Source: Limisphaerales bacterium (GTDB lineage Bacteria; Verrucomicrobiota; Verrucomicrobiia; Limisphaerales; JAYTXL01). Taken from it: a DNA stretch of 64,000 nt. This document shows, piece by piece, positions 6,160 through 7,870 of the stretch (position 1 is its first letter; every line of letters starts with the position of its first letter). Below the pieces are notes generated by a model. The model ran no database searches, was not told the origin of the DNA, and saw only the letters and a list, made by a program, of their open reading frames with translations. Location: NCBI GenBank assembly GCA_046593035.1, contig JBKJSC010000265.1, forward strand, positions 2,816 to 66,815. Direction: 5' to 3'. A program made the position numbers and the translations under genes.

Positions 6160-6332
6160 TTAGCCACCGGTGAAACACGGATTGAACACGGACATGGAAA
6201 CTCATAAAGAATGCAGGCGGGCAGGAGTAAAACTGCGGCCACCGTGCTCCCCTCCCTCCTGCCTTCCTGCCCTCCTTATAAATTCTCTTTTTTTCCTATC
6301 CGTGTTTCGTCCGTGTTTCATCCGTGGCTAAA
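6160..6332. repeat. Inverted-repeat (MITE/REP-like) intergenic element, same family as 4973-5135
   Basis: The left arm TTAGCCACCGGTGAAACACGGATTGAACACGGAC (6160-6193) pairs with the right arm ATCCGTGTTTCGTCCGTGTTTCATCCGTGGCTAAA (6298-6332). The core holds a second imperfect palindrome (GCAGGCGGGCAGGAG / CTCCTGCCTTCCTGC). Confidence 0.75.
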
Positions 6333-6347
6333 TAGAATCTTCTTTCA

Positions 6348-7778
6348 ATGCCGCTGCCCGACCTCATCGAGATTGTCCCGCTCACCGTGCCGGTGCGCGC
6401 GGAGATCACCGTGCCCGGCTCCAAGAGCATCACCAATCGCGCGCTCGTCCTGGCTGCGCTGGCCGACGGCGAAGTGACGCTGCAAGGCGCTCTGTGGAGC
6501 GAGGACACGCAGGTGATGGTCGAGTGTTTGCAGGAACTCGGCTACATGGTGAACGTCGCACGCGATCCGGATGAGGCGTGCAATCGTACCATCACGGTTT
6601 ATGGCTTGGGCGGACGTGTGCCGCGCGGGGGGACGGCGGAGCAGCCGCTGGAACTTTTTGTTGGCAACGCGGGCACGGTGGCGCGTTTTCTGGCGGCGAT
6701 GGTGTGTCTCGGCGAGGGGGTTTACCGGCTACACGGTGTGCCAAGAATGCACGAGCGCCCACAGGCAGCGTTGTTCCAGGCGCTGCGCGAACTCGGCTAC
6801 CGGGTGGACGCGGCGAATGACAAATTGCCGGCGATCCTCCACGGCGGTAGGAGTCGAGGTGACGAGACTCTGACTGAAGAATCCAGAATTCAGAATCCAG
6901 AATCCGGAACCGATCAGAGACTCCTCACGTCGTCTCCTACCAGAAAATGTGAAGTGAGCATTGAGGAAAGCTCGCAGTTCGCCTCGGCGCTGTTGCTGGG
7001 TGCGACGGTGGGCGGGTGGGCAATAAAAATCGTGGGAGAGAATGCGGAGGAGTCTCCGTATGTGGCAATGACCGGCGAGATGGTGAAGGTGTTTCCACAT
7101 CGTGGTGGGAAATTTCAAATCGAGCCGGATGCGTCGAGTGGGAGTTATTTTTGGGCCGTGGAAATATGCCAGATGATTAATGGTTGGAAGCCGAGATTTC
7201 CGATTCGCGACAAAATACCGACAGAGGAAATCGTTGCCTTCATTAGAGATTTTGGTGCAAGACTAAAAATCACTGTATCCGGGTGGCCAAATTCAGGTTG
7301 GCAGAGTGACGCGGCATTTCCAGCTTGGTTTGGCAATACCGCTGTCTCGCGCACAGTGCATTTGGCGGACAGCATCATGACTGCAATTGTGATTGCTCCA
7401 TTGGGATCGTGCCCCACCAAATTCACCGACCTCGGCCGGCTCCGCGTGCAAGAGTGCGAGCGCGTCGTCGCCTTGCGCACCGAGTTGACCAAGTGCGGCG
7501 CGAAAGTTGTGGAGGAAGGCGACACGCTCACGGTGTACCCGTCGCAAATTCATGGTGCGGAGATCGAAACCTACAATGATCATCGCATGGCGATGTGTTT
7601 TGCGATTCTGGGATTGAAAGTGCCGGGCATCAAAATCAAGAATCCGGCGTGCGTGAAGAAAACATTTCCGAATTTTTTCCAGAAGCTGGCCGCGCCACCG
7701 CCCGGCGGACTCGGCGCGACGATTCTCGACGGCCACACGGGCCGCAAGCTCGGCCTGGAGGAGTTGTTTGCGGAGTGA
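6348..7778 (+). CDS. aroA: 3-phosphoshikimate 1-carboxyvinyltransferase (EPSP synthase), carrying an in-frame repeat-element insertion
   Basis: Motifs PGSKSITNRAL, VGNAGTVARFL, ESSQFASALLL, DASSGSYF and DHRMAMCFAI. At 476 aa it is about 30 aa longer than usual because of the insert at 6847-6940. Confidence 0.9.
   Translation: MPLPDLIEIVPLTVPVRAEITVPGSKSITNRALVLAALADGEVTLQGALWSEDTQVMVECLQELGYMVNVARDPDEACNRTITVYGLGGRVPRGGTAEQPLELFVGNAGTVARFLAAMVCLGEGVYRLHGVPRMHERPQAALFQALRELGYRVDAANDKLPAILHGGRSRGDETLTEESRIQNPESGTDQRLLTSSPTRKCEVSIEESSQFASALLLGATVGGWAIKIVGENAEESPYVAMTGEMVKVFPHRGGKFQIEPDASSGSYFWAVEICQMINGWKPRFPIRDKIPTEEIVAFIRDFGARLKITVSGWPNSGWQSDAAFPAWFGNTAVSRTVHLADSIMTAIVIAPLGSCPTKFTDLGRLRVQECERVVALRTELTKCGAKVVEEGDTLTVYPSQIHGAEIETYNDHRMAMCFAILGLKVPGIKIKNPACVKKTFPNFFQKLAAPPPGGLGATILDGHTGRKLGLEELFAE
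6847..6940. repeat. Palindromic element inserted in frame within aroA
   Basis: 27-nt arms: GTAGGAGTCGAGGTGACGAGACTCTGA (6847-6873) and TCAGAGACTCCTCACGTCGTCTCCTAC (6914-6940), with 23/27 positions complementary. They flank five heptamers GAATCCA GAATTCA GAATCCA GAATCCG GAAC (6879-6910). The element encodes about 31 extra residues after the conserved LHGG loop. Confidence 0.75.
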
Positions 7779-7781
7779 TTT

Positions 7782-7870
7782 ACCGCCGAGACGCAGAGAC
7801 GCGGAGTCTGAATTCATTTGCTGCCAAAGTTCTTGTGCGCTCATTCTCTGTGCCTCCGCGTCTCAGCGGT
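7782..7870. repeat. Palindromic intergenic element (GAGACGCGGAG family)
   Basis: ACCGCCGAGACGCAGAGACGCGGAG (7782-7806) pairs with CCTCCGCGTCTCAGCGGT (7853-7870), between the aroA stop and the cmk start. Confidence 0.7.

Follow-up and report, generated by a model that had tools for sequence, protein, structure and literature searches.

How can the coding sequence of an essential enzyme hold a DNA palindrome and still specify an apparently working protein, and what kind of palindrome is it? The question is raised by a stretch of 64,000 nucleotides from a Limisphaerales bacterium (GenBank assembly GCA_046593035.1, contig JBKJSC010000265.1, positions 2,816 to 66,815 of the forward strand; hereafter the window), in which aroA, the gene for class I 5-enolpyruvylshikimate-3-phosphate (EPSP) synthase, occupies positions 6348–7778 of the plus strand. 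An earlier note had pointed to an in-frame inverted repeat at 6847–6940 within this gene; these limits coincide exactly with an element that begins with GTAG and ends with CTAC, inside an open reading frame (ORF) of 476 aa that includes the insert. We put the probability at roughly 85% that the insert is a non-autonomous, GTAG-tagged dimer of repetitive extragenic palindromic (REP) units, similar to REPINs (REP doublets forming hairpins) and BIMEs (bacterial interspersed mosaic elements), carried as a passenger in the β-hairpin tip of an EPSP synthase that stays functional.

The 94-nt element (6847–6940, plus strand) consists of two inverted REP units whose GTAG heads face outward, and is one of 23 such pairs in the genome. 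The left unit, GTAGGAGTCGAGGTGACGAGACTC (6847–6870, plus strand), has the GTAG tag, an 8-pair stem with tandem G·A pairs and a GTGA loop, as delimited by the unit census and stem covariation described below. The right unit (6917–6940) lies on the minus strand, which reads GTAGGAGACGACGTGAGGAGTCTC, the most frequent unit in this genome with 8 copies. An inverted-repeat search returned arms of 28 nt (6846–6873 and 6914–6941), 24/28 complementary (86%) and 40 nt apart, so that the palindrome described in the earlier note stands, its dimensions (27 nt, 23/27) being replaced by these. In shuffled sequence 0 matches to the arm are expected, and the element folds as RNA with −44.4 kcal/mol (z = −4.3). 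Rfam gives no match in the window between 6000 and 8000. The spacer between the units (6871–6916, plus strand) contains a heptamer array at 6878–6909 (plus strand), translated as EESRIQNPES, for which Tandem Repeats Finder counts 4.6 copies of AGAATCC (88% matches) where five heptamers had been read.

A search of the genome (4.5 Mb in 292 contigs) with a 96-nt query spanning the element gave 68 partial matches that resolve into two independent repeat families, one of the arms and one of the heptamers, the latter dispersed over 23 loci. The aroA element is therefore composite, a REP dimer with a dispersed heptamer array in its spacer. Uniqueness in the genome, which would have spoken against a repeat element, is thus not what the copy search found.

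The REP unit is 24 nt long (consensus GTAGGAGACGACGTGAGGAGTCTC) and is present in 54 copies on many contigs, the reversed control giving 0–1. Its parts are the GTAG tag (intact in 48/54 units), an 8-pair stem, two tandem G·A pairs and a 4-nt loop of the GNRA type (GTGA or GTAA). The stem covaries: pair 8/21 is C-G in 17 units, A-T in 25 and T-A in 2, and pair 12/17 is C-G in 33 and G-C in 15. The 23 inverted pairs, all with the GTAG ends outward, are mostly 69–94 nt long (two are longer), and the spacers of the other dimers (15–45 nt) are unrelated in sequence. The hallmarks of a GTAG-REP are all seen here: the tag together with an imperfect palindrome, dispersed copies, compensatory changes in the stem, and inverted pairing across a short spacer. 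The 54 units and 23 dimers also bear out the earlier view of the insert as a non-autonomous palindromic element and not ordinary coding sequence. Its supposed likeness to other palindromes of the window extends to architecture and not to family membership, since the window contains no other copy of the aroA element family. Beyond this genome, the same unit is present in 27 of 41 related genomes, the richest of which has 280 copies (0–1 for the reversed pattern), so this family, which we call class A, is old and widespread in Pedosphaera-like Verrucomicrobia, a group named here after the source labels of homologous proteins.

By sequence and predicted structure the host gene encodes an EPSP synthase. 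Its product matches EPSP synthases in the PDB at E-values of 1e-52 to 1e-47; the AlphaFold 2 (AF2) model has a mean predicted local distance difference test (pLDDT) score of 85.9 and a predicted template modelling (pTM) score of 0.86, and Foldseek pairs it with EPSP synthases at a probability of 1.0. All residues that bind shikimate-3-phosphate (S3P) or phosphoenolpyruvate (PEP) or act in catalysis in the Escherichia coli enzyme, which we take to be K22, S23, N94, G96, R124, S169-Q171, D313, E341, R344, H385, R386 and K411, have counterparts here, the conserved residues being K26, S27, N107, G109, R137, S208-Q210, D341, E369, R372, H412, R413 and K438. The extra sequence stands between LPAILHG and KCEVSIEESSQFAS and runs from codon positions 2–3 of G167 through positions 1–2 of T198. 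As claimed earlier for canonical AroA proteins, the segment G167-T198 is missing from the enzymes of E. coli and of canonical relatives; in E. coli numbering the insertion site is the G155-G160 turn. In the AF2 model residues 169–197 have a pLDDT below 50 and form a hairpin tip between strands 162–166 and 200–204, the remainder being a confident EPSP synthase fold; the base of the same β-hairpin carries the S3P-binding SSQ motif. A genome-wide search found a single aroA copy. The placement in a surface loop of an essential enzyme therefore holds, and the model suggests a disordered loop that the protein tolerates; the insert is probably neutral for enzyme function. An intein or intron was considered and rejected: the insert is 31 residues long, disordered and devoid of a domain, has no Rfam match and keeps the frame in all relatives.

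The aroA dimer is not an isolated case. Of the 23 dimers, ten are placed in frame within nine Pfam-verified genes: uvrA (two dimers), argJ, hemL, nuoL, valS, aroA, two genes for large DUF7133 proteins and one for a Type ISP restriction-modification enzyme. In-frame survival like that of the Rickettsia palindromic elements (RPEs), as the earlier note had proposed, thus extends to real genes across the genome. The genic dimers use only the two left-arm frames that avoid the TAG of GTAG, reading VGDDVRRL... or RSRGDET.... We propose that a REP dimer landed in the DNA encoding the β-hairpin tip of EPSP synthase and that it would persist because it is read in a stop-free frame, leaves the downstream frame unchanged and gives the protein no more than a hydrophilic, disordered loop of ~31 residues. 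Placed far along the hairpin from the SSQ-bearing base, it would leave the enzyme functional. The element would then be a passenger and no part of the enzyme, with a spacer that happens to hold a dispersed AGAATCC run as well. By analogy with other REPs, it may be mobilized in trans by a Y1 transposase of the RAYT (REP-associated tyrosine transposase) type acting on single-stranded hairpin DNA.

Several observations weigh against a REP dimer of this kind. REPs are expected to be mainly extragenic, and with ~43% of its dimers in genes this family is far from the classical habit. No target-site duplication was found at the 23 copies (3-nt flanks) or at the aroA junctions of relatives, nor was a conserved target motif seen among them. 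In its own genome no RAYT gene is flanked by class-A REPs, all four Y1_Tnp genes being flanked by other palindromes, and no class-A unit lies within 1.5 kb of 30 Y1_Tnp loci in ten REP-rich relatives, a survey that covered 30 of ~95 matches in incomplete assemblies. Finally, the source is a fragmented metagenome-assembled genome (MAG) of 292 contigs, 93% complete, with 3.6% contamination, and fragmentation and contamination at this level would also be the grounds for regarding the insert as an assembly artefact or aroA as a dead gene. To this last explanation we attach scarcely any weight: more than 100 AroA genes assembled independently from many samples carry comparable inserts, likewise in frame, in this position, the arms (24–28 nt) are shorter than usual assembly k-mers, both flanks are aroA, and the uninterrupted ORF retains every catalytic residue.

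The missing duplication bears on one more candidate. A miniature inverted-repeat transposable element (MITE) would share the inverted ends, but there is no direct duplication at the copies or at the aroA junctions, and no parent insertion sequence is known; it was rejected. As to the transposase genes themselves, the four of this genome, which are IS200-like or RAYT-like (C187:16140-16484, C95:10700-11041, C265:1379-1711 and C30:799-1026), each have a palindrome family of their own on their flanks, one of these being of the GTAGCCACGGGTGA type. In the relative G013 a RAYT-like gene of 241 aa (L099:1622-2531, contig C27) lies between perfect 31-nt inverted repeats, CCGGAGCGCGGAGCATTGCTCCGCG, and has a pair of the same repeats within its own reading frame. 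It was considered as the class-A mobilizer and dismissed, its flanking REPs being of the CCGGAGCGCGGAGC type, which resembles an insert class of other relatives (class D, below) and leaves class A unexplained.

Is the insert peculiar to this genome? We sampled 40 related genomes, one per genus, and located aroA by six-frame search. In 28 the loop is a short canonical or near-canonical turn (HG-GGPRPG-KCRVSI), in 11 an insert is found exactly here, and in one (G025) the loop is marginally longer; more distant AroA proteins have the short canonical GxGPxxG turn. The orthologue alignment thus places palindromic DNA in the equivalent loops of relatives and a short turn in distant homologues. All 11 insert-bearing genes are open and free of stops, which speaks for translation of the insert and against its removal. 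Compared as DNA, the insertions fall into at least six unrelated types. Class-A dimers (GTAGSAGNCGA...) occupy the loop in the genome of the window and in G006, G013, G031 and G039; a class-B dimer, GTAGGGACGCGTTCCACCGCGTCCC, in G007; a GTAGGGCGGG dimer in G004; class-D dimers of the CGGAGCGCGGG type in G001 and G002, both congeneric with the source of the window; CCCTC...GAGGG hairpins in P0010; and a bare run of GAAAGCG heptamers in G014. The same insert classes recur among the 120 best database homologues, a sample biased to inserts because its members were picked for their resemblance to a query that itself carries one. The total of 114 insert-bearing proteins among 148 AroAs is inflated by that choice, and the unbiased figure is 11 of 40, plus the one marginal case.

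On a tree computed with the loop masked, the insert class changes many times. AroAs only 0.02–0.06 substitutions per site apart carry different classes (P0018/P0064, P0004/P0010 and P0073/P0105), and 45 class changes are inferred in total, an upper-end figure given mosaic alleles and the weakly supported FastTree backbone. One filled and empty pair, P0023/P0050, was set aside as a definer of the insertion point, its DNA identity being only ~78%. Junctions vary by lineage, the insert following HG, HGG, an intact GGGPTLTG or I, with G, T or A as the base before GTAG; these differences point to several separate insertion events at the aroA loop. Not every occurrence appears to be a new arrival. 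Two allele pairs inspected as DNA have raised divergence directly beside the insert, so part of the apparent turnover is probably import of alleles by recombination. In these pairs (L065/L066 and L067/L068, from metagenomes) DNA identity is 0.97–1.0 at a distance from the insert but drops to 0.63–0.83 over the adjoining 90 nt, a pattern resembling short tracts of recombination with the insert at their centre. In addition, the AroAs of the same-genus genomes G002 (L037) and G001 (L039) do not group with that of the window on the tree, a hint that aroA alleles have been exchanged.

Descent accounts for some of the class-A distribution as well, because a single combination of frames (SRGDE... and ...LLTSSPT) is used by every class-A insert in aroA and because an aroA-specific arm variant, GTGAGTCGGCTC, is common to G006 and G031, members of different families. 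The shared variant, along with arms that are intact and mutually matched in many orthologues and differ in a compensatory way between lineages, could be read as a sign that the insert has been domesticated, either as a hairpin in the tyrA-aroA-cmk mRNA or DNA (acting through stability, pausing or supercoiling) or as a peptide loop selected for function. We find this quite improbable. The site in close relatives holds unrelated sequences, half-elements, bare heptamers or nothing, 28 of the 40 genus representatives make do with the short turn, the peptide is predicted to be disordered, and class-A members are scattered over intergenic DNA as well as nine unrelated genes. A tolerated passenger REP dimer remains our preferred explanation.

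The recurrence of inserts in one loop raises the further question of whether the loop is merely tolerant or is preferred by the insertion process itself. REP-type peptide signatures fall in this loop in 174 of 174 cases, with none elsewhere in 149 AroAs, and true inserted palindromes do so in 14 of 14 cases in 35 aroA genes; 13 inverted repeats found outside the loop were discarded as chance complementarity in conserved coding sequence. This concentration holds though two other AroA segments of the clade are hypervariable in length, ranging in relatives over 3–75 aa after residue 280 and 8–59 aa after residue 328; neither of them (residues 280–328, window ~7185–7330, and the segment after 328) has a REP signature. 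Such figures, and the variety of unrelated types in the loop, would suit a mechanistically preferred landing pad to which hairpins and heptamers are directed, or where they replace one another, by targeting and not by tolerance alone. However, both other variable segments are partly helical in the model and may tolerate floppy inserts less well. GTAG-type inserts of different families share the codon phase (xGT AGx), and the class-A insert of the window and the class-B insert of G007 have both flanks in common, yet the left junctions are up to six codons apart, the base before them varies, and no target motif is shared. The divergence beside inserts, moreover, fits import of whole alleles and would lower the number of independent events.

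A landing pad could arise by hairpin-directed insertion on single-stranded DNA or by exchange at GTAG/CTAC borders. The empty aroA site does have a modestly raised hairpin potential, with a median rank of 0.14 relative to the positions of the gene under a matched control; the tested sequences are not independent of one another. A first value of 0.03, which would have made the site a strong attractor of hairpins, was withdrawn as biased, since it took the best of overlapping windows.

The reuse is shared by a second gene. At the hemL site of the insert in this genome, class-A dimers, other palindromes or bare heptamers are present in the genes of 14 of 29 relatives, which on the one hand adds to the case for targeting. 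On the other, since hemL behaves like aroA, the recurrence belongs to the lineage and to permissive loops at large and not to aroA alone. At hemL itself (C206:10836-12194; loci L113-L142), one class-A dimer of a relative has heptamers in its spacer, and other relatives have a short EEL-xx-xAY turn. Taken together, it seems to us unlikely, if worth serious thought, that the AroA hairpin tip and the equivalent spot of HemL are reused landing pads in Pedosphaera-like Verrucomicrobia that are filled by a DNA-level mechanism. Candidate processes may include insertion by a Y1 transposase at transient single-stranded hairpins, exchange at GTAG/CTAC borders, and heptamers that arise in REP spacers and outlive the arms.

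The heptamers deserve separate treatment. Arrays of three to five AGAATCC units occur at the 23 loci mentioned above, on contigs that include C3, C56, C70, C126, C172, C192, C198, C204, C267 and C285, and the array at 6878–6909 is the only one in the window. Only in aroA does such an array lie between REP arms. Sixteen arrays are situated in long ORFs, and 15 of the 16 are read in the hydrophilic sense (ESRIQNP). When ten host ORFs were examined against Pfam, nine matched (zinc alcohol dehydrogenase, SMC hinge, IspG, a HAD-NUDIX protein, LarC, lactate permease, UvrC, TrpE and PriA) and one had no Pfam match. More generally, the genome contains 155 period-7 arrays with three copies or more, which fall into several unit families (AATCAGT 17, AATCCAG 15, AAAGTTC 14, among others). 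Spacers of related AroAs contain runs of different heptamer units (EIRNPKSE and KPETRNPKPE are two examples), and heptamers stand without arms at the aroA site in P0071, P0080 and G014. These data suggest that heptamer arrays can arise in REP spacers and outlast the arms.

How does the aroA element compare with known systems? In-frame palindromic elements in genes have reportedly been described in Rickettsia. The present insert resembles them as a palindromic repeat in frame in an essential gene, tolerated as an extra surface segment; unlike the obligate intracellular Rickettsia, the host here is a free-living soil-type verrucomicrobium. RPE-1 is longer than an element of the aroA type. REPINs and BIMEs are said to be associated with RAYT transposases. 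As in these, two inverted REP units form a long hairpin, and the family is conserved and persists by vertical descent throughout a whole order; unlike in these, no REPtron, that is, a RAYT gene flanked by this REP, was found in the genome of the window or at the 30 loci of ten relatives. Classical REPINs are almost entirely extragenic. The heptamers recall the short tandemly repeated repetitive (STRR) heptanucleotide sequences that have reportedly been found in cyanobacteria, with short runs (3–5 units) of a 7-nt unit at many loci beside other unit families; the likeness is one of array form alone, and in contrast to STRR the arrays are mostly genic and hydrophilic in 15 of 16 readings.

The closest precedent lies in the same phylum. 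Intragenic GTAG-tagged REP dimers were most numerous in the verrucomicrobium Opitutus terrae, where uvrA is hit twice, and the GTAG/CGTC REP superfamily defined in that study accepts intragenic members and includes RPE-4/6 as CGTC-tagged ones (Di Nocera, De Gregorio and Rocco 2013, BMC Genomics 14:522, PMC3733652). Our element is GTAG-tagged, which sets it apart from RPE-4/6, and we do not class it as an RPE. In common with the published REPs it has a GTAG tag and a short stem-loop, and like the published dimers, which are inverted, have 20–100 nt spacers and add 20–30 residues in frame to known proteins, it extends a known protein in frame. It differs in belonging to another unit family, none of whose peptide signatures is in the O. 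terrae list, in its host gene (aroA is not among the published hosts), in the 43% of dimers that are genic and in the refilling of one loop by several families, which is not described there. In-frame REPs in a genome of the Planctomycetes–Verrucomicrobia–Chlamydiae (PVC) group were thus already on record: the kind is already known from the published dimers, and the REP family and the host gene aroA are new.

As a single case the element is ordinary: it extends the published record of GTAG REP dimers inside verrucomicrobial genes by one host, aroA, and one new REP family. The comparison is of more value, since a 6-residue turn of an essential enzyme of well-known structure is filled by at least six unrelated repeat types within one order, with turnover between near-identical alleles. 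It offers a natural system for asking whether the spread of REPs is targeted or merely filtered by selection, and it marks a position of EPSP synthase that tolerates 20–35 extra residues.

Two further palindromes adjoin aroA. The spacer between tyrA and aroA (window 6171–6326) contains one whose arms are tandem 11-mers (GAAACACGGAT/GAACACGGAC versus 2.6 copies of ATCCGTGTTTC) around a run of 2.9 copies of CCCTCCTG. The spacer between aroA and cmk (window 7786–7866) contains a palindrome belonging to a further family (GAGACGCAGAGACGCGGAG ... CTCCGCGTCTC), which begins 8 nt past the aroA stop codon.

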